Assembly: GCA_965652295.1 (NCBI GenBank)
Contig: CBFGTS010000008.1
Location: 64,001-128,000, forward strand
Direction: 5' to 3'
Source: an uncultured Haloferula sp.
GTDB lineage: Bacteria; Verrucomicrobiota; Verrucomicrobiia; Verrucomicrobiales; Akkermansiaceae
DNA: 64,000 bases
Shown here: piece after piece, positions 28,695-39,010 of the stretch
Layout: the number at the start of each line of letters is the position of its first letter
Numbering within the stretch: the first letter of the stretch is position 1
Translations under genes and position numbers: made by a program
The notes under the pieces: model-generated
What the model was told of the DNA's origin: nothing
The model's input: only the letters and a program-made list of their open reading frames with translations
Databases searched by the model: none

Positions 28695-31600
28695 CTACCG
28701 TTGCACGGTGCCTTCGGGGCAGGTGAGCGAGGTCCACAGCGCCAGGGCGACGCGTTGCTCGCGAGTGAGGTCGGTGTTTTCGAGGACGTCGAGGATCAGC
28801 CCGCGGGTGCGGGCGGTCATGGAACCGGCGCAGACGAGCAGGTTGAGCCGGTCGACGAGGATCTCCGGGGTGGCGGCGTCGAGGAGGAAGCGGGCGTAGT
28901 CGAGCGGGTAGCGCGGCCCGGACCAGGAGGAAATGAAGCCATCGCGAAGGTAGTCCCAGAGGCGGTTGGGGAACGAGATGGCGGAATAGGAATCGATGAT
29001 CTGGAAGCCCGGGCTTACCAAGCCGAGCTCGCGGATTTCGCCAGGGGCTTGGTATTCGGGGGTGAAGAAATTGAACACGCTGGGCGAGTAGAACGGCTCT
29101 TGAAAACTATAGCCGTAGTAGAGTTGTTCCGGATTCCACCAGACGAAGTCGGGGTGCAGATCCATCACTCGGCCGAGGCGCGCGAGGTGCATGGTGCGGA
29201 TGACCGGTTCGCGGACTTTTCCGAAGGTGGGATCGAGCGGCATGCGGCGCGCCTCGTCGTCGAGCAGGATGGCGCGGACGGTTTCGCCGAGATTTCCTCC
29301 GCTGGCGGAGAAGGCGGAGGAAACGCGCCCGACATAGGACGGCGAGGGGTTGTCGGTGACGAGGAAGCGGATCAGGTGCTTGGAGAGGAAAGGCGCGGTG
29401 TTCGGATGGCGAACAAGGGCTTGGACGGCTTCGCGGACTTCCTGCATGCCGGCTTGGTCGGACGGATCGCGGGCGGGGAGAATGACGCCGCCGGGCAGCT
29501 CCTTGCGTCCGAAGTCGTGGTGTTCGGCCCACATGACCATGGGCTTGAGGAAATGGCTCTCGCTCCATCCTCCGCCGCCCCAGCCGTAGGGGGCATCGTA
29601 GTAGAGACCGGTGAAAACTCGGGCCAGTTCGGTGATGTCGCCGTTGTCGTAGGTGGGGATCGGTTCTCCGGTTTCGTCGAGCTTGCGGGTGCCATCGGGA
29701 TTGAGCTCCCACAGGCCGATGGTGAAAAGTTGCATGATTTCCCGGGCGAAGTTCTCGTCCGGGTAGCGGGGGATGGAGGGATCGGCCTTCTGATTCCCGA
29801 CGTGGCTGAGATACCAGCCCATGTTCGGGTGAAGGGCGACGCCGGTCAGAAGGTCGGCGTAGGAGCCGAAGGCACCGTTGATGAGGTGATCGTAGTAGTC
29901 GGCGAGGGCCTCGGGCATTTCCGCGAGCTGGGCGTCGCGGCGGGAGATGACGAGGATTTCGGAAAGCGCGAAGGCGACGCGCTGGCGGAGTTGATCGGGC
30001 GCGGAGATGGCGTGGCGGGCCCACGGGGTGGTGATGTTCGAGCCGGTGACGAAGGAGTTGTCCTCGTTGTAGTCGTAGGTCCGGTCGAGGTGCGGGCCGG
30101 CGGCGTCTTCCTTGATGCGGACGATGTAGGGGCGGAGGAGCGAGGGCGGGAGAGAGAGTTGTTCGTCGATCCAGGCTTCGACTCCCGTGGTGCGGACGTG
30201 ATCGATCTCTTCAAGGGTCGGGCCGAAGGTGGCCTGCATGAGTAGCCGGGAGGCATGGACCGGGGAGGGCGCTGAGGTCGACGGGCTCGTGCCACCGCCG
30301 GTGGTGCCGGAAGCGATGGTGTCGAGGAGGGCACGGGCGTCGCCGGCGAGAGGGCCCGCCGCAGGGTCGGTGGTGGAGGCGGCGAGTGAGTCGGGCGAGT
30401 CGGGATCCGAAAACAGAACGTGGGTTTCCACCCAGTCTTCCACTCCGTCGCCATCGCTATCGACGGAACCAACGCCGGCCCGGAAGTACGAGGGTTCTGC
30501 GAGAAGGGCATCGGGAAGGGTCGCGGTGATTTCCGTCGGGGTCAGGCCGAAACCGGGCGGGTCGAACGGGTCCCACTGCGCGAGGTCGGAAGAGGACTCC
30601 AGCCAGTGGGCCTTGTGATCGAGGCGGGTCCAGGCGAGGTGGAGATCGTCGCCTTCCGTCTCGCTGCGCATGCGGAGGCGCGAGTTCGGATCGTCGGGAT
30701 CGGTGCCGGCTTCGCTCTCGGCGCGATTCGACATGCCATCGCCATCGTCGTCGTCGAGGGCGGCGCGGGTTTTTCCTCCGGACCAGAGGGACCAGGCGTC
30801 GGAGAGGCCGTCGTTGTCGAGGTCGTCCAGATTCCCGGAAAAGCCATGCCAGGCGGGCGCGGACGAAGCGATGAGAGGCGAGGTGCCGAGCGCGAGTTCG
30901 GTGGCGTCGGAAATGCCGTCGTCGTCGGTGTCGGCCGCATGAGGATCGGTGCCCGCCAGGAACTCGGTGAGGTTGTCGAGTGTGTCGGCGTCGGAATCGA
31001 GGGTCGCGTCCGCGGGATCGGCGGGGTTGAAGGTGTGAGCGGTTTCCCAGGTGTCGGGCATGCCGTCATCGTCGGAATCTGCGGTTCCGACCGCGTGGCT
31101 GGCGAGGAAGGGAGTGATGCCGGGCTCACTTTCGAAGGTGGTGAACCCGGGGATGCCATCGACGGAGGTCCACGAGGCGGAGCCATCGAGAAGGTGGGGA
31201 TCGACGGCGACGTGGTCGGTCCACTGCCGGGAGGCGATGAGCGTGGGCGAGCCGGGATCCGCGAGGTGGTGGATGGAGAAGGTCAGGGTCCACGCATTGA
31301 TGCCGGGATCGGGGCGAACGGCGGTCATTTCCAGGCGGAGCGGATGGGATTCATCGCCATCTCCGTGATCGCTGAAGCCGAGCGCGGCGGAGAGGTCGTT
31401 GGCGGGATCGGTCGAGCCGGTGGCGTAGATCCCCCACTCGGGATGGCCGGGGTAGTGGAAGAGATTCTGGGTGCAGCGGAAGCGATGGGCGATGACGCCA
31501 TTCCGGTAAACGAGCCCCATGGCCATCTCGTGGGTCCAGCTTTGGTCGTCGAACTCGACGATGGCTTCGAAGAGGTTTGTGGAGCTGGAGTTGATCGCGC

Positions 31601-33650
31601 CGGTCATCGACTGCCGGTGGTCCCAGCGGATGCGCAGGTTGTCGATGCGCCAACGCCAACCCTGGATGGCGGAATCCCAAATCGGGGCGGGAGCAGGGAT
31701 GCTGGAGGGGTCGCCGGGGTCGCTGCCGGATGCGACTTCGAGGTCGTCCGTGAAAGTGTCGTTGTCCGTGTCGGTCAGCACGGGTGAGGAGGGGAACGGC
31801 TGGGCGGTGAGTTCGGTGCCGTCGGGCAAGGTGTCGCCATCGGTATCGCCGAGGAGCGGGTCGGTGCCGTGGCTGTCCTCGTCGCCATCGACGATGCCAT
31901 CGTGGTCGGTGTCGGCGAGATGGGGGTCGGTGCCCCGGATGAGTTCGTCGGCGTTTTCGAGTCCGTCGCCATCGGCATCGAGGTGCGAGTCAGGGACGGC
32001 CGGATCGAAGCCATGTTCGATTTCCAGACTGTCGGCGAGGTCATCGCTGTCGGAGTCGGTGCCGGTGTCGACGATCTGGAGTCCGTGAAGCGAGACCTGA
32101 TCATTGTCGAGCTGGCTGAGCTGGACGGAGTGGCTGGCGCCGGTGAGGCCGCGGTAGCGGACGACGTTGGTCTGGGCGATGTCGGCCTCGGTGGTGGCGG
32201 TGGTTTCGATCCAGCCGGGAAAGGGGGGGGCGGTGTGGGAAACGAAGAAGCGGTCGGTGGCGGGGTCGTCGTCGAGCCGGACACGGCCGCGGTGGTTCGG
32301 GTGGTTGTCGCCGACGTAGAGGATGAGGTCGTAAGTGGCGTAGGGGATGCCGTCGATTTCGAGGAGGACGGGAATGTTCGTCGAGCCGGCGCGGGCGGCG
32401 GCGAGGCAGCCATTGGCCAGACGTTCGTCCGAGCCACCCTTGTGATAACCGGCGGTGGCGTTGCGGTGGGTCCAGGCGAGGGTGACCGGGCTGGCTTGGC
32501 CGAGCGCATCGACGAGTCCGCCAGCCGAGCCGCTGGTCGGCGTGCTGCCCACGCCCCAGACCGGGAGCCAGTCGCTTGCATTCCAGTGGGGCAGACGGAC
32601 GACCCCGGCCGGTTCGAAGGCACTCAGGGGGAGGTTTTCCGGCCGGCTGGAGATGAAGTGGAATCCGACCGCGCCGGCGAAGGGGAAGGGGTGGGAGGCG
32701 GAAGAGTCGGGGTCGGTGCCGTGCTTGATCTCGAAGTTGTCGGAAAAACCATCGGCGTCGGTATCCGCGAGGGTGGGCGAGGAGGACGTTTCGTCGCCAT
32801 CGACGAGGCCGTCGCCATCGGTGTCGGCCACGAGCGGGTTGGTCGTGGTTTCGTCGCCATCGGCAAGGCCGTCGTTGTCGGTATCGGGATGGGACGGATA
32901 GGTTCCGGCCGCGAATTCAGCCAACGCGTCGAGGCCGTCACCATCGGTGTCGATCGCAGCATCCGCCGGGTCTTCATCGTCGAGGCCCCACTCGGTCTCG
33001 AACCAGAGTGGGAGGCCATCTTCGTCGGCATCGCGCAGGGCGAAGGGTTCGGCCTCGAGTTGGAGATAGTCGAAAACGAGATAGCCTCCCGCGGCTCCGC
33101 CGGTGCGTTCGATTTCGATCACGTTGTTCGTGGTCGCGGCGGAAACCGAGGACGCGGGCACCGCGATGGTGAAGGTCGTGGCGAAATGGATATCGGCGCG
33201 GGTGAGGATCGGATGACCGTTGAAGCGGACGACGATGTCGTGCGTCTGGAATCCAGGCAGCGAGGAGGGCGAGACCCAGGCTCCGCCGGAGTGGAAATCG
33301 AGGGTGAGGGTCAGGCGTGATTCGGCGGTGCAGGCGGTTTCCGGAAGGGGGAAATGGAGCCGGACGCGTGGGTCGCCCTGAGTGATGGCGCGTTCGAATT
33401 GGTTGGCCGGTTCATCGCCGGCCACGGGGCCGATGGGCGCGGGATAGGTGCCGGCGAAGTAATAGTCATCGTCCTTCGCCGACGGAGAGCCCGGGGCAGT
33501 GTTCGGATTCCAGCTTTCCGTTTCGAAGGGCAGGGCTTCGGCATCGTCCTGGCCGAGTTGCCAGACGGTTTCGAGGTCGACCGCAAACAGCGCGCTGGGG
33601 GCGGCGACGGCGAAAGCGGCTCCGAGAAGGATGGTCAGAGCCCGGGACAT
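28695..33650 (-). CDS. 1651-aa secreted protein: N-terminal domains and DxDxDG Ca-binding repeats fused to C-terminal DUF1800
   Basis: Signal peptide; 16 DxDxDGxxDxxE-type repeats; DUF1800 motifs ASRLLMQATFGP, DQLRQRVAFALSEI, PDENFAREIMQLFTIGL, GKVREP, SPSVFNFF. Confidence 0.9.
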   Translation of the reverse strand: MSRALTILLGAAFAVAAPSALFAVDLETVWQLGQDDAEALPFETESWNPNTAPGSPSAKDDDYYFAGTYPAPIGPVAGDEPANQFERAITQGDPRVRLHFPLPETACTAESRLTLTLDFHSGGAWVSPSSLPGFQTHDIVVRFNGHPILTRADIHFATTFTIAVPASSVSAATTNNVIEIERTGGAAGGYLVFDYLQLEAEPFALRDADEDGLPLWFETEWGLDDEDPADAAIDTDGDGLDALAEFAAGTYPSHPDTDNDGLADGDETTTNPLVADTDGDGLVDGDETSSSPTLADTDADGFSDNFEIKHGTDPDSSASHPFPFAGAVGFHFISSRPENLPLSAFEPAGVVRLPHWNASDWLPVWGVGSTPTSGSAGGLVDALGQASPVTLAWTHRNATAGYHKGGSDERLANGCLAAARAGSTNIPVLLEIDGIPYATYDLILYVGDNHPNHRGRVRLDDDPATDRFFVSHTAPPFPGWIETTATTEADIAQTNVVRYRGLTGASHSVQLSQLDNDQVSLHGLQIVDTGTDSDSDDLADSLEIEHGFDPAVPDSHLDADGDGLENADELIRGTDPHLADTDHDGIVDGDEDSHGTDPLLGDTDGDTLPDGTELTAQPFPSSPVLTDTDNDTFTDDLEVASGSDPGDPSSIPAPAPIWDSAIQGWRWRIDNLRIRWDHRQSMTGAINSSSTNLFEAIVEFDDQSWTHEMAMGLVYRNGVIAHRFRCTQNLFHYPGHPEWGIYATGSTDPANDLSAALGFSDHGDGDESHPLRLEMTAVRPDPGINAWTLTFSIHHLADPGSPTLIASRQWTDHVAVDPHLLDGSASWTSVDGIPGFTTFESEPGITPFLASHAVGTADSDDDGMPDTWETAHTFNPADPADATLDSDADTLDNLTEFLAGTDPHAADTDDDGISDATELALGTSPLIASSAPAWHGFSGNLDDLDNDGLSDAWSLWSGGKTRAALDDDDGDGMSNRAESEAGTDPDDPNSRLRMRSETEGDDLHLAWTRLDHKAHWLESSSDLAQWDPFDPPGFGLTPTEITATLPDALLAEPSYFRAGVGSVDSDGDGVEDWVETHVLFSDPDSPDSLAASTTDPAAGPLAGDARALLDTIASGTTGGGTSPSTSAPSPVHASRLLMQATFGPTLEEIDHVRTTGVEAWIDEQLSLPPSLLRPYIVRIKEDAAGPHLDRTYDYNEDNSFVTGSNITTPWARHAISAPDQLRQRVAFALSEILVISRRDAQLAEMPEALADYYDHLINGAFGSYADLLTGVALHPNMGWYLSHVGNQKADPSIPRYPDENFAREIMQLFTIGLWELNPDGTRKLDETGEPIPTYDNGDITELARVFTGLYYDAPYGWGGGGWSESHFLKPMVMWAEHHDFGRKELPGGVILPARDPSDQAGMQEVREAVQALVRHPNTAPFLSKHLIRFLVTDNPSPSYVGRVSSAFSASGGNLGETVRAILLDDEARRMPLDPTFGKVREPVIRTMHLARLGRVMDLHPDFVWWNPEQLYYGYSFQEPFYSPSVFNFFTPEYQAPGEIRELGLVSPGFQIIDSYSAISFPNRLWDYLRDGFISSWSGPRYPLDYARFLLDAATPEILVDRLNLLVCAGSMTARTRGLILDVLENTDLTREQRVALALWTSLTCPEGTVQR

Positions 33651-34495: not shown

Positions 34496-36301
34496 TCAGG
34501 CTCCGGCGGGTGCGATGGAGGAGGTGCCGGGCTTTTTGACGGTCTGGATGCGGAGGTCGCGGAGTTGCTTGAGATCGACCTCGGCCGGGCTCTGCGACAT
34601 GAGGTCGTTGCCCTTGTTGTTTTTTGGGAAGGCGATCACCTCACGGATGCTGTCCTCGTCACAGATGAGCATGACGAGGCGGTCGAGACCGAGGGCGAGG
34701 CCACCGTGGGGCGGGGCACCGAAGCGGAATGCGTCCAGAATGTGGCCGAACTCTTCAGCCGCCTGCTCTTCGGAAATGCCGAGGGCCTTGAACATGGCCG
34801 ACTGGAGTTTGCCCTCGTGGATCCGGATCGAGCCGCCGCCGAGTTCGTGGCCGTTGAGGACCACGTCGTAGGCCTGCGCGCGGAGTTCGGTGGTGAGCTC
34901 ACCGGCGAGGAGCTTGGCTTCGTCTTCCTTGACCGGGCGGGTGAAGGGGTGGTGGACGGCGACGTGGCGGCCGGTTTCCTCGTCCCAAGCCAGGAGCGGG
35001 AATTCGGTGACCCAGAGGAAGTTCAGCTCGTCGTTGCCTTCGAGGAGGTTCTGCATTTCCGCGACGGCGAGACGGACGCGGCCGAGGACGTCGCAGGCGG
35101 GTTCCCAAGCGTCGGCGGCGAAGAGAACGAGGTCGCCCGGTTCAATGTTGAGCTTGGTGCGCAGGGCCTCGACCTCGGCATCGGTCATGCGCTTGACGAA
35201 GGGCGAGCGCCAGGTGTCGCGCTCGGTGCCGCGTGCCTGGATGTAGGCGAGGCCTTTCGCGCCGGCGGCCTGGGCGAGCTTGGTGAGCTTGTCGATCTGG
35301 CCGGTGGAGATGTCGGCGAAACCCTTGGCGTTGATGGCTTTCACCACACCCCCGGCAGCGATGGCTCCGGAGAAGACGCGGAATTCGCAGTCCTTGAGGT
35401 CCTCGGAGAGATCGACGAACTCCATCCCGAAACGGCGATCGGGTTTGTCGGAACCCCAGGTGTCCATGGCGGTCTTCCAGGTGATGCGATCGAAGGAGGC
35501 GGGGATTTCGGCGCCACGGGCTTCCTTGAAGATGCGGCCGAGCAGGCCTTCGACGAGACCGATGATGTCGTCCTGATCGACGAAGGAGGCTTCGAGGTCG
35601 ATCTGGGTGAATTCCGGTTGGCGGTCGGCCCGGAGGTCCTCGTCGCGGAAGCATTTGGCGATCTGGAAATACTTCTCGATGCCGCCGACCATGAGCAGCT
35701 GCTTGTATTGCTGCGGAGCCTGCGGGAGGGCGTAGAAGTGGCCGGGCTGGAGGCGCGAGGGCACGAGGAAGTCGCGCGCGCCTTCCGGGGTGGACTTCGA
35801 AAGGATGGGCGTCTCGATTTCGCAGAAGCCCTGTTCGTCGAGAAAGTCGCGGGTGGACTTGGTGACGCGGTGGCGGGTGCGGAGGTTGTGGGTCATCCGC
35901 GGACGGCGGATGTCGAGATAGCGGTATTTCATCCGCAGGTCCTCGTTGGAGAGTTCCTTGTCGAGCTGGAACGGGAGGACATCGGCCTTGTTGACGATCT
36001 CCAGCTCGGTGGCGACGATCTCGATCTCGCCGGTGGCGATCTTCGGGTTGGTGGTGCCTTCGAGGCGTGCGGAGACCTTGCCGGTCACGCGGACGACGTC
36101 TTCCTCGCGGAGCTGGTGGGAGAGCTTGGCGGCCTCGGCGTTTTCCTCCGGGCGGAACACGCACTGGGTGAAGCCTTCGCGGTCGCGGAGGTCGGTGAAG
36201 ATCACGCCGCCGTGGTCACGGGCGGAGTTGACCCAGCCGATGAGGGTCACGGTTTCGCCGATGTGTGAGGAGCGGAGTTCGTTGCAGTGGTGCGTGCGCA
36301 T
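34496..36301 (-). CDS. aspS: Aspartate--tRNA ligase
   Basis: [58 protein letters not shown]. Confidence 0.97.
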
Positions 36302-36318
36302 GGCCGTTGAAGAATGGG

Positions 36319-36349
36319 GGACCAGGATGGATAGGATGGATGGGATGAT
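36319..36349. repeat. Left inverted-repeat arm (three 9-mer units) flanking the GxxExxY gene
   Basis: ggaccaggatggataggat (36319-36337); units caggatgga/taggatgga/tgggatgat. Confidence 0.9.
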
Positions 36350-36733
36350 TTACTTTTCGCGGAGCGGATAGATGCGGCGAACTTCGACCTTTGGATTGCC
36401 GAAGTTGATGATGAGGCCGAGTGGTAAGCCCGTTGCTTTAAGATAACTGAGCATCTGGGCCAATTCGCGATCCGTGAGTTGTTTGACGGTCTTGGTATCG
36501 ACGATGATTTGGTCGAAAACGATGAGGTCGGGAATGAGGTCGTCGATGACGGTGTCCTTGTAAATGAGGGGGAAGGCTTTCTGCTGGTCGTAGGCGATGG
36601 ATCGAAGTTGAAATTCGCGGACCATTGCCCGCTCGTAGGCTTTCTCCCGGAATCCGAATCCGACCTCGTTCATCACCTCGTAGGCGATTCCGATGACGGT
36701 GCCGGTTTCGTGATTCAAGGAAATCCTATCCAT
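36350..36733 (-). CDS. GxxExxY protein (PD-(D/E)XK nuclease superfamily)
   Basis: GFREKAY, PDLIVFDQIIVDTK, QMLSYLK..G..LGLIINF. Confidence 0.92.
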   Translation of the reverse strand: MDRISLNHETGTVIGIAYEVMNEVGFGFREKAYERAMVREFQLRSIAYDQQKAFPLIYKDTVIDDLIPDLIVFDQIIVDTKTVKQLTDRELAQMLSYLKATGLPLGLIINFGNPKVEVRRIYPLREK

Positions 36734-36741
36734 CCTGGTCC
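36723..36741. repeat. Right inverted-repeat arm flanking the GxxExxY gene (contains its ATG)
   Basis: atcctatccatcctggtcc is the exact reverse complement of 36319-36337. Confidence 0.9.
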
Positions 36742-36754
36742 AAAAGCTTCGGGG

Positions 36755-38050
36755 TTATGCCAGTAAGGGGCCGTCGGGTTGTTGGAGGCGGTCGGTGAGC
36801 CAGTCGGGGAGGCCGAGGACGTGGCACTTTTCCTCGGTCCTTGAGGAGAGCACCTTGAGGGTCAGCTCGGGAAGCTCGCTGCCGATGACGAGGGCGAAAC
36901 GGGCACCGGCTTTCTCGGCGTTCTGGAACTGCTTGCCGACCTTGACTCCGCCGAACGGGAGGTCGCAGGAAATGCCGGCGTTGCGGAGGTCGGACAGGAC
37001 GCCGAGGGCTTCGGAACGCTTCGACTCGTCGGCGAGGACGAGGTAAACCTCACACGCGGCACCTTGGCGCAGGAGGTGGGTTTCGAGCTGCATCCGCGGA
37101 TCGGTGGTTTCCTCGATGAGGTTGCGGATGACGTAGTCGCCCATGGCGAAGCCGGTGGCGGGCATGTCGACGCCGCCTTCGGAAATGGTGGCGACGAGGG
37201 TGTCGTAGCGGCCGCCGCCGGCGACGGCGCGCATGGATTTCTTCGAATCGAAGACCTCGAAAACGACGCCGGTGTAGTAGGCGAGGCCGCGGACGATGGA
37301 GAGATCGAGCTGGATGAAATCGCCGAGGCCGCGGGCTTCGAGCTCGGCGCGGATGGTGTCGTAGGCGGCGGAGGCGTTCTCGGGGTTGGCGATGAACGCG
37401 GTGACGGCTTCGGTTTCGATGCCGAAGGCGGCGAGCTTCTCTGCGGTGACCTCGGGCTTCTCGCGTTCGAGCTTGTCGATGATCTGGAGGAACTCGGGAA
37501 TCCGGTCGTCGCTGACATTCCGCGCCGCGGCGAAATCGAGCCACGCCTGGCGGTCGGAAACGCGGACGACGAACTCGCCGGCGACGAAACCGAAGGCGCG
37601 CATGGTGTCGATGGCCAAGGCGATCAGTTCGGCATCGGCCGCGGGGCCGGGCTCGCCGAGGATGTCGACGTTGAATTGGTAGAATTCGCGTCCGCGGCCT
37701 TTCTGCGGCTTCTCATAGCGGAAGCACTGGCCGATCTCGAACCACTTGAGCGGCTTCGGGAAATCGCGCTGGTGCTGGGCGGCGAGGCGGGCGAGCGAGG
37801 CGGTGATCTCGGGGCGCAGGCAGACGTCGCGTCCGCCCTGGTCCTCGAAACGGAAGAGCTGTGAGGAGAGTTCGCCGCCGGATTTCTTCAGGTAGAGCGC
37901 GGTGTCTTCGAGGACGGGGGTGTCGTACTCGACGAAGCCGTATTTGCGGGCGACCGAGCGCCAGGTTTCGAAGAGGTAATTGCGCACGGCGCACTCCCGC
38001 GGCGTGAAGTCGCGGAAGCCGGGAAGGGCTTGAAAACGAAGGGCTGCCAT
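36755..38050 (-). CDS. hisS: Histidine--tRNA ligase
   Basis: PGFRDF, LRPEITAS, FRYEKPQKGRGREFYQ, VRGLAYYTG, GGGRYD. Confidence 0.96.
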   Translation of the reverse strand: MAALRFQALPGFRDFTPRECAVRNYLFETWRSVARKYGFVEYDTPVLEDTALYLKKSGGELSSQLFRFEDQGGRDVCLRPEITASLARLAAQHQRDFPKPLKWFEIGQCFRYEKPQKGRGREFYQFNVDILGEPGPAADAELIALAIDTMRAFGFVAGEFVVRVSDRQAWLDFAAARNVSDDRIPEFLQIIDKLEREKPEVTAEKLAAFGIETEAVTAFIANPENASAAYDTIRAELEARGLGDFIQLDLSIVRGLAYYTGVVFEVFDSKKSMRAVAGGGRYDTLVATISEGGVDMPATGFAMGDYVIRNLIEETTDPRMQLETHLLRQGAACEVYLVLADESKRSEALGVLSDLRNAGISCDLPFGGVKVGKQFQNAEKAGARFALVIGSELPELTLKVLSSRTEEKCHVLGLPDWLTDRLQQPDGPLLA

Positions 38051-38111
38051 GATGTCGCCGTTGAAGGGGCGGGGAGGATGCACGGCGGGGGCGGCTTTTC
38101 AAGGCGGGATT

Positions 38112-39010
38112 GTGTGGGAGCCACGGGGCGGAATCCGGGGAGTTCGGGAGCGGGATGAATGGGATTTTCAGGAAGGAGAGGATGCCGAGGCTGCTCTTGC
38201 TTCGAGTGGGTCGGGAGCGTAGTCTGACCTGCCTGGATCAGGAGCAGAACCGCATCAACGAGCCGGTAGTGGAATACCGGACGGGGAGGGCACTGCGTCC
38301 GATCCGCTTGACGCCTTGCTCGAGCGATTACGAGACCGCTGTCGAGCTGACGGCGCGGATGTTGGGGATCAGCGGGATCGATGCATCGAGAAGGAAACCT
38401 TGCACCTCGTTGCTGAGGCTCGCAAAGCCGGGCTCCTGATTCTACAGCGAGTTTTAAAGCCTATTGGGCGGCTTCCGATTCCCTGCCTCTTTCGGGAACC
38501 GAGCATTCGGTCGAGCAGGATGGAGACGTGTTCATCAAAATCACCCGTCCCCCGGGGTTCGGGCTGGTGCCTTTTGTGAATCGCATCCCTGTGCTCGCAG
38601 CGGATCCGGCGGTGCCGACGACTTGGCGGAAAGCCTTGGAATTTCGCAGTGCGACTCCTTTGGAATACCTCACCCGCTGGCGGGCGTCGAACGAGGTCTT
38701 CGGTGATGATATAAGGCTTCGCTCGGTCGTGCAGTGGGCGGATGGTCAGGTTTCGGTGGTCATCTCGCAGCCGCAGTATCACGGTCGGCCAGCGGAGCTG
38801 CGGGAGATCGAGGAATATTTCCGGCGGGCTGGTTGGGAGCGGCTTCGCGAACCGACTGGGCATCTGGTTTTTCACGACTGGATCCGTGGGGTGATCGCCG
38901 TCGATGCGGCACCGCGCAATTGCTACATCAAGGCGGGCGGCTTGCAGCCCTTCGACGTCATCCTGTGCGAGCCGGACGACGACCTTTCTCGCCATCTTGG
39001 GATTGGCTAG
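38112..39010 (+). pseudogene. Disrupted or recoded polyvalent-protein-type Ser/Thr/Tyr kinase domain gene
   Basis: Frame B (open 38417-39010) has SGTEHSV...FIKITRP, ATPLEYLTRW..SNEVFGDDI, VISQP, VDAAPRN, PFDV. Frame A supplies a plausible N-terminus (ETLHLVAEARKAGLLI) but has an in-frame TAG at 38220; the frames differ by -1 near 38440-38459. Confidence 0.65.

Follow-up and report, generated by a model that had tools for sequence, protein, structure and literature searches.

Two described systems come closest to the element reported here. The 23S rRNA intervening sequence (IVS) of Coxiella measures 428-444 nt, is low in GC and carries an S23p open reading frame (ORF) within a 28-bp terminal stem, which RNase III cuts mid-stem (as set out in the relevant part of PMC4990558). 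In partnerships of REPINs (hairpin doublets of repetitive extragenic palindromic, or REP, sequences) with RAYTs (REP-associated tyrosine transposases), inverted copies of a repeat stand on either side of a single-copy gene, and the repeat is also found many times without the gene, as extragenic hairpin doublets (PMC3116915, PMC3337134). Here we analyze a 64-kb window, the whole 64,000-nt stretch of DNA from an uncultured Haloferula sp. (C8:64001-128000 of genome G000), in which the spacer between hisS and aspS holds a 423-bp cassette: a gene of the GxxExxY family of PD-(D/E)XK nucleases, enclosed by perfect 19-bp inverted repeats. The cassette is a discrete, horizontally acquired, repeat-armed unit and one member of a class found across phyla. 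By analogy, it resembles REP/RAYT in layout and the rRNA IVS in its transcript, and is a member of neither. The function of PDDEXK_3 is entered as 'Unknown' in a table of PMC3424549, and the GxxExxY domain receives one passing mention in PMC8934634. No description of GxxExxY cassette packaging was found in the full-text literature, subscription journals being outside the coverage.

Like the ORF-bearing 23S rRNA IVSs of Coxiella and Leptospira, the cassette is a unit of ~420-440 nt with terminal inverted repeats and a stem round one small ORF. Its GC content is below that of the host, its distribution is sporadic, and it occupies a slot that is probably transcribed and not translated; the S23p family of IVS ORFs is found in the same kind of cassette in this genome (3/3). 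Unlike the IVSs, it lies in the spacer of an mRNA operon rather than in 23S helix 9, 25 or 45, with no rRNA match, and its ORF encodes a PD-(D/E)XK nuclease (PF13366) instead of the PF05635 four-helix bundle. Each arm is an array of phased 9-nt units, of which gene-less copies are dispersed in the genome, and cleavage by RNase III is only predicted. Common to the cassette and REPIN/RAYT are a single-copy gene between inverted copies of a repeat, the dispersal of this repeat through extragenic DNA in gene-less form, and the occurrence of several repeat groups, each with its own gene, in one genome. The cassette differs in its enzyme, a 127-aa PD-(D/E)XK nuclease rather than a Y1 HUH transposase, and in its repeats, which are tandem 8-10-nt units rather than a single palindrome. 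The RAYTs that the genome does encode lie elsewhere, between repeats of an unrelated kind, and the link between cassette genes and repeat abundance is weak.

The cassette and its nuclease

The locus is organized as follows, in window coordinates.

36319..36741, minus strand: whole cassette, 423 bp, in the order arm, GxxExxY gene, arm (inverted repeat, low GC, presence or absence as a block across the genus)
36723..36741, minus strand: gene-proximal (5') arm, two 9-nt units plus an outer GGACC, holding the ATG and M-D-R (inverted-repeat search)
36350..36733, minus strand: GxxExxY / PDDEXK_3 gene, 127 aa (ORF translation, hidden Markov model matches)
36319..36346, minus strand: gene-distal (3') arm, 19 nt in perfect complement to the 5' arm, followed by a degenerate third unit at 36338-36346 (inverted-repeat search)
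36742..36754, minus strand: 13-nt spacer from the hisS stop codon to the cassette (sequence, locus comparison)
36302..36318, minus strand: 17-nt spacer from the cassette to the aspS ATG (sequence, locus comparison)
36755..38083, minus strand: hisS, upstream co-directional flank (TIGR00442, 319 bits)
34496..36301, minus strand: aspS, downstream co-directional flank (NF001750, 829 bits)

The arm GGACCAGGATGGATAGGAT (36319-36337) and its exact reverse complement (36723-36741) are 19 nt long, 100% complementary and 385 nt apart. With up to three mismatches allowed, the 19-mer matches the 64-kb window twice, both times at the arms themselves, and two matches occur in 0/100 dinucleotide shuffles. 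The arms are also the window's only perfect inverted repeat of at least 16 nt with a partner within 900 nt. Both are made of 9-nt units, AGGATGGAT, and the one at 36319 extends through a third, degenerate unit to 36346. The GxxExxY ORF begins within the arm at 36723-36741, which holds its ATG and the codons M-D-R; codon 6, an in-frame TTG read by eye just inside of this arm, is an alternative start. The GC content is 0.51-0.56 over the ORF, compared with ~0.65 in the flanks. The first-pass annotation, made from the letters alone, had described a GxxExxY gene between perfect 19-bp inverted repeats in the hisS-aspS spacer, with 9-mer units, a third degenerate unit on the left, an upstream arm that includes the ATG and M-D-R, an ORF more AT-rich than its neighbors and no evident target duplication. 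The arms, ORF coordinates, flanks, base composition and family matches bear out this description.

The 127-aa protein matches TIGR04256 (GxxExxY; E 2.3e-37, 127.9 bits, cut-off 35) and PF13366 (PDDEXK_3; E 1.3e-35, 122.8 bits, cut-off 22). Its translation contains the GxxExxY motif, G27-F-R-E30-K-A-Y33, and the catalytic P68-D69 and D79-T80-K81; residues E30, Y33, D69 and K81 are each at least 90% conserved in 68 aligned homologs. The AlphaFold2 (AF2) model has a mean pLDDT of 96.3. Foldseek aligns this model with Cas4 SSO0001, lambda-exonuclease-like enzymes and Hjc, that is, with the general PD-(D/E)XK fold, and more weakly (E 2.5e-2) with the solved catalytic domain of the homing endonuclease I-Bth0305I (3r3p). 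VIA-align returns R.SwaI (Z 8.3), SSO0001 (Z 8.1) and Hjc (Z 6.8). No PD-(D/E)XK subfamily stands out among the Foldseek and VIA-align matches, a sequence search of the PDB found no relative at E <0.4, and PADLOC and PHROGs gave no family match. Judged by motif, conservation and predicted fold, the GxxExxY gene of the cassette is an intact PD-(D/E)XK nuclease gene.

The GxxExxY/PDDEXK_3 family comprises 9,471 clusters at 50% identity (E up to 0.001). Among its 150 best representatives, 30 are tandem fusions of two GxxExxY domains (including P0004, P0005, P0008, P0014 and P0023). The linkers are ordinary in 5/5 fusions inspected, and the second domain lacks the catalytic motif in at least two (P0005 and P0023). 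To judge from these fusions, the functional unit of the GxxExxY nuclease is probably a dimer.

Inverted arms, their proteins and gene-less copies

Inverted-arm packaging is general for GxxExxY genes. The first-pass annotation had asked whether others besides the hisS-aspS gene have flanking inverted arrays, and they do: all three GxxExxY genes of this genome are bracketed in this way, with arm sequences that differ. The second gene lies between carA and purA within a 21-nt perfect repeat of CGCGAATGGA units, and the third within a ~40-nt imperfect repeat of GCAGAGGA-like units; in the cassettes of this genome the arm units are 8-10 nt long. The genome's three genes of S23p/PF05635, the four-helix-bundle family of the 23S rRNA IVSs, are likewise placed between inverted short-unit arrays (3/3), and none of these cassettes is in rRNA.

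C28:7440-7760: PF05635 cassette L122, arms of 44 nt
C7:152251-152571: PF05635 cassette L123, arms of 34 nt
C1:86549-86845: PF05635 cassette L124, arms of 26 nt

The cross-phylum survey, with the single 127-aa protein as query, found 80 loci encoding relatives in at least 10 phyla (Verrucomicrobiota, Cyanobacteria, Acidobacteriota, Planctomycetota, Chloroflexota, Armatimonadota, Spirochaetes, Myxococcota, Desulfobacterota, Lentisphaerae and Firmicutes); L078 was left out because its flank is too short, which leaves 79. In 72/79 loci, the best inverted match between left and right flank scores above the highest value of the reversed-only and complement-only controls, and in 75/79 it scores above the highest value of the dinucleotide shuffles. 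These controls were used since pairing left and right flanks of non-cognate loci is a poor one, different loci sharing units. The 5' arm contains an in-frame ATG in 51 of the 72 loci. The inner end of the left arm lies at a median of +3 nt from the first aligned codon, and the arm is usually continuous with the conserved coding region. The upstream neighbor is co-directional in 62/69 decidable family loci and the downstream neighbor in 39/65.

Three cassette types occupy the hisS-aspS site in the genus. Type A combines AGGATGGAT arms with proteins that share 61-100% identity with the 127-aa protein; in type A2 the arms consist of CTTGATGGAAAGGATG and the protein identity is 66-71%, and in type B the arms consist of AACCGCAGATGAACGGGATGGA and the identity is 44-50%. 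Across phyla, arms are alike at >=17/20 nt in 333/1,421 pairs, compared with 0/1,355 control pairs taken just outside the arm. Such likeness is seen in 314/813 pairs whose proteins are at least 50% identical and in 19/608 pairs below 50%. In sequence comparisons, arm type and protein type thus covary, as the first-pass annotation had proposed to check, both in the A and B protein identities at hisS-aspS and in the cross-phylum arm pairs.

The arms themselves are constrained. An identical 19-nt left arm is present in four distinct species-level loci (L012, L016, L042/L129 and L046/L131), and silent sites are saturated, with dS of 1.0-1.8 (~1.4 among type-A genes). Within type A, only one double change between the two arms is clear, at position 6 from A-T to G-C; the pattern used mis-anchored three of the right arms. 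Since three arm types, each with its own paralog, exist in one genome, no single host factor explains the constraint. Because the arms stay constant while silent sites saturate, and are type-specific within a genome, these sequence patterns point to the cassette's own protein as the simplest and most likely reader of the arms.

Units of the same sequence also occur without a gene. In this genome the type-A unit pattern is matched 30 times, compared with 1-2 times for the reversed control, and the CGCGAATGGA type likewise has gene-less copies, with 13 hits compared with 0 for the control. By a crude coding filter, 18/20 type-A clusters lie outside coding-like ORFs. The gene-less type-A copies include simple hairpins with arms ~70 nt apart. 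A further form is a ~200-bp element in six copies, which is bounded by separate terminal inverted repeats (CAGGGCTCCTACNTTAGGGAG...) and has a type-A hairpin at its center.

C1:596035-596120: copy of the ~200-bp element
C2:289097-289171: copy of the ~200-bp element
C3:64775-64872: copy of the ~200-bp element
C3:225761-225847: copy of the ~200-bp element
C7:190797-190883: copy of the ~200-bp element
C17:33524-33610: copy of the ~200-bp element

Four relatives have the conserved right-flank gene without the C1 copy beside it. They yielded no clean empty site for this element (C1:596035), as only the right flank is syntenic and the left neighbor is different in each. Type-A arrays are present in 35/35 genus genomes, with 1 to 77 hits each. 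The median is 25.5 hits in the 12 genomes with an A/A2 gene and 15 in the 23 without one (one-sided Mann-Whitney p 0.038, the genomes being related). Since gene-less hairpins of the same units are scattered in intergenic DNA, the layout is that of REP/RAYT with a different enzyme.

Two other arrays were observed. A type-A-like arm pair 375 bp apart, at C6:25723-26097, is without a GxxExxY gene and contains nested hairpins of other (CGGAGGA-like) units, from which it follows that hairpin elements nest inside one another. Just upstream of hisS, at 38153-38183 of the window, is a solo, degenerate type-A-like array (GGATGAATGGGAT...GGAAGGAGAGGAT) whose inverted partner was not seen.

The hisS-aspS site across the genus

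The aspS region was fetched from 40 relatives, and the genus set consists of 22 loci, our own included. The hisS-aspS gap holds a cassette in 16/22 species (gap of 453-639 nt) and is empty in 6/22 (30-58 nt); the 6/6 outgroup loci in which hisS stands beside aspS are without a GxxExxY cassette. Empty sites, which the first-pass annotation had suggested looking for, therefore exist in relatives, and its claim of a discrete ~420-bp unit agrees with the presence or absence of the ~423-bp repeat-bounded block in these loci.

Cassette turnover is observed at the site among the species of the genus. The nearest relative (aspS 94% identical) has a type A2 cassette, not type A. On the aspS protein tree, the A, A2, B and empty states require 14 changes (minimum 5; shuffled labels 14.5), a count that uses six labels, the broken A copy and two outgroup loci being labeled apart from the four states. 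Well-supported sister pairs with unlike states are A/A2, A/B (twice), A2/empty and B/broken-A. In the type B loci L017 and L028, the B arm is followed downstream by the remnant of a type-A right arm, which is homologous to the one in their sister L016, so an A cassette was formerly present there. The cassette nuclease genes are under strong purifying selection, with dN/dS among hisS-aspS orthologs of 0.106 for type A (23 pairs), 0.088 for A2 (3 pairs) and 0.050 for B (12 pairs).

We note some peculiarities of individual gaps. In L020 (G006:C1), a type-A cassette has intact arms and a broken gene, with two fragments and a stop codon. The gap of the outgroup locus L036 (G039) measures 364 nt and has no GxxExxY match. 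The 'empty' gaps of L014, L026 and L031-L033 contain short tandem units (ccgatcac, ggcacttg), which may be solo arms of further cassette types. The hisS 3' tree and the aspS trees (L012-L033) conflict for several species, for example in the placement of L015, which suggests that the species have recombined in this region, irrespective of cassette type.

All 12 genomes with a homolog at least 66% identical have one copy each, always in the hisS-aspS gap, and the carA-purA lineage is equally site-faithful (3/3 relatives at >=77% identity). The cassette looks like a long-term resident rather than an active jumper. The proposal in the first-pass annotation of a minimal mobile element, in the sense of active jumping, is not supported, in view of the single copy, the one site, a divergence about as deep as that of the flanks, and the intact state in three other metagenome populations. 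In the metagenome reads, joints 36346->36723 were considered as excision products and rejected, since the letters inserted in them and the loose ends of the reads belong to the gene-less hairpin at C7:184156-184234. In one metagenome contig (X3) the gene-proximal arm is longer by one 9-nt unit, a weak observation from a single contig at depth 5.3.

Elsewhere in the window, a 1651-aa ORF on the minus strand (28695-33650) has abundant repeats of the Asp-x-Asp-x-Asp-Gly type and a signal-like N-terminus.

Weighing the explanations

We favor, with a probability of roughly 0.55, an anciently inserted, selfish or semi-domesticated, hairpin-armed cassette in which the arms serve the encoded nuclease as its specific partner. 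Such a cassette would have entered the hisS-aspS spacer in an ancestor of the Verrucomicrobiaceae genus (the Luteolibacter/Haloferula group), and afterwards been kept at one site, lost in some species, and exchanged for sister types with other arms in others. The sequence constraint suggests that the encoded protein would itself read the arms, probably as a dimer bound to the phased units, and the REP/RAYT-like layout suggests that the nuclease may act on arrays both in cis and in trans. No promoter-like or terminator-like sites were found in 36000-38400, and as the gene upstream is co-directional, expression is probably from the hisS-aspS transcript. In that transcript, the arms are predicted to pair as a stem of 19-24 bp, with the ORF looped out and the AUG buried. 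Because the architecture is that of the ORF-bearing 23S rRNA IVSs, cleavage of this stem by RNase III is its likely, predicted fate.

A number of results weigh against this reading. As to movement, no direct repeat stands beside the arms (flanks ...aatggg / aaaagc...), so that the target duplication by which miniature inverted-repeat transposable elements (MITEs) and insertion sequences (ISs) are recognized is missing. Cassette identity exceeds flank identity by more than 3 points in 0/57 within-type pairs, and trees of the flanks (the last 840 nt of hisS and the first 600 nt of aspS) are not clustered by type, with 12 and 10 changes compared with 12.2-12.3 for shuffled labels. The cassette is intact in contigs of three other metagenome studies, where the empty allele was not seen. 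Much of the 'turnover' could be explained by differential loss from an ancestral cassette tandem, with no new insertion. As to the role of the arms, the likeness of the two could stem from gene conversion (concerted evolution) instead of selection. The link between the cassette gene and the number of gene-less arrays is weak, and two genomes (G016 and G019) have ~50 type-A hits each without an A/A2 gene. Arm mismatches compatible with G:U pairing show no bias in 72 distinct loci (63 sense and 61 antisense, with 104 others); sense-strand G:U pairs are thus not preferred, and a signature of selection on the RNA stem as such is missing. Finally, long retention and strong purifying selection also fit a gene that is useful to the host.

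The alternative that survives best, which we nevertheless regard as unlikely, is an RNA-only 'mRNA intervening sequence', whose arms would serve RNase III excision of a selfish ORF and would never be touched by the nuclease. The architecture matches that of the ORF-bearing 23S rRNA IVSs (as laid out in the relevant part of PMC4990558), the S23p genes of the genome are packaged alike, and the genome contains an RNase III gene. For the 465-nt hisS-aspS spacer RNA, both the minimum free energy (MFE) and centroid folds contain the long-range stem (-148.2 kcal/mol, z -3.94, 0/100 shuffles as stable), with the AUG of the GxxExxY ORF buried in it; as a fold prediction, this agrees with the earlier suggestion that the arms can pair in the hisS-aspS transcript and hide the start codon. 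The predominance of co-directional upstream neighbors (62/69) points the same way. Rfam has no match in 36000-37100, nor for the arms in 13 other loci. However, RNase III is indifferent to sequence, yet the arms are conserved across phyla at 56-70% protein identity and differ by cassette type within one genome. An RNA-only role also leaves unexplained the phased 8-10-nt units and the dispersed gene-less hairpins with the same units, and it finds no support in the G:U-compatible mismatches (63 vs 61).

A currently active autonomous mobile element, that is, a transposon or homing element with a nuclease that would cut empty or hairpin targets and so let the cassette be copied into them, appears improbable. 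Free-standing homing endonuclease genes are small, optional nuclease genes that lie between conserved genes, and one slot can hold different ones in related genomes. The hisS-aspS spacer is similar in that it optionally holds a small nuclease gene whose type differs among related genomes, and dissimilar in that the cassette flanks show no sign of co-conversion and that the gene stands between inverted arrays belonging to it. MITEs and small IS elements are likewise small and intergenic, end in terminal inverted repeats and have gene-less copies, whereas the cassette has neither a target-site duplication nor a known transposase family, and its gene-bearing form does not multiply. Current activity would account for presence or absence and type switches between sister species, for the remnant arms left by a replaced cassette, for the low GC and for near-identical arms on cassettes of different phyla, and the PD-(D/E)XK fold is common with I-Bth0305I (3r3p, the weak Foldseek match at E 2.5e-2). 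Nonetheless, each genome has one copy per type despite up to 77 cognate array hits as possible targets, and the site is always the same. The cassettes have diverged as deeply as the flanks, which show no sign of co-conversion, and target duplication is absent. Neither an empty allele nor an excised form was found in 4 metagenome runs, the candidate joints belonging to the locus at C7:184156.

Little credence is also due to a domesticated operon part, in which the hairpin would regulate or stabilize the hisS-aspS mRNA, as REP hairpins do in operons, and the nuclease would serve the host. Strong purifying selection (dN/dS 0.05-0.11), a long, site-faithful stay between two essential genes and intactness in several populations are what this explanation expects. 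Against it, 6/22 genus species and 6/6 outgroup loci do without the cassette, three non-orthologous types replace one another at the site, the copy in L020 is broken, and the same packaging is found at unrelated sites in at least 10 phyla.

It is very improbable that the arms are ordinary REP sequences served by the RAYT (Y1 HUH) transposases of the genome, with the GxxExxY gene having landed between two of them. The genome does contain 12 Y1_Tnp (RAYT-like) matches, several of which are flanked by long GC-rich inverted repeats (examples are C3:252502-252711, C17:82645-82812 and C17:91668-91922), and several lie within open frames of 917-1514 aa. However, the GGATGGAT-like unit is absent from the repeats flanking all 12 matches, which are GC-rich nested palindromes instead, and arms of the same unit accompany GxxExxY genes across phyla. 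Because the RAYT-flanking repeats are unrelated to the type-A units, the cassette arms are not RAYT REPs. A chance inverted repeat round an ordinary gene, for which the small size of the repeat is the sole argument, we count as refuted by the 0/100 shuffles and by recurrence above controls in 72/79 homologous loci.

Beyond the hairpin-armed cassette that we favor, a wider and more tentative proposal is that GxxExxY cassettes, S23p cassettes and the classical 23S rRNA IVSs may be branches of one pan-bacterial class of hairpin elements, in which a small protein that binds nucleic acid is paired, in each branch, with inverted arrays of its own phased recognition units. A dimeric nuclease acting on hairpin or cruciform arrays would seed and maintain the gene-less copies, and the RNA stem would permit a harmless life in essential operons and rRNA. 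If this is true, a PD-(D/E)XK nuclease would be a second, mechanistically unrelated counterpart of the REPIN/RAYT partnership. The wrapping of nearly all GxxExxY genes in conserved, phased inverted arrays, the presence of different arm types in one genome and the gene-less intergenic hairpins of like build make a family known as a domain of unknown function into a testable system of protein plus DNA site. They offer a candidate origin for one class of bacterial intergenic hairpin repeats, and tie such repeats to the long-puzzling ORF-bearing 23S rRNA IVSs. The cassette would also be an example of a selfish gene that has resided for long between two essential, co-transcribed genes.

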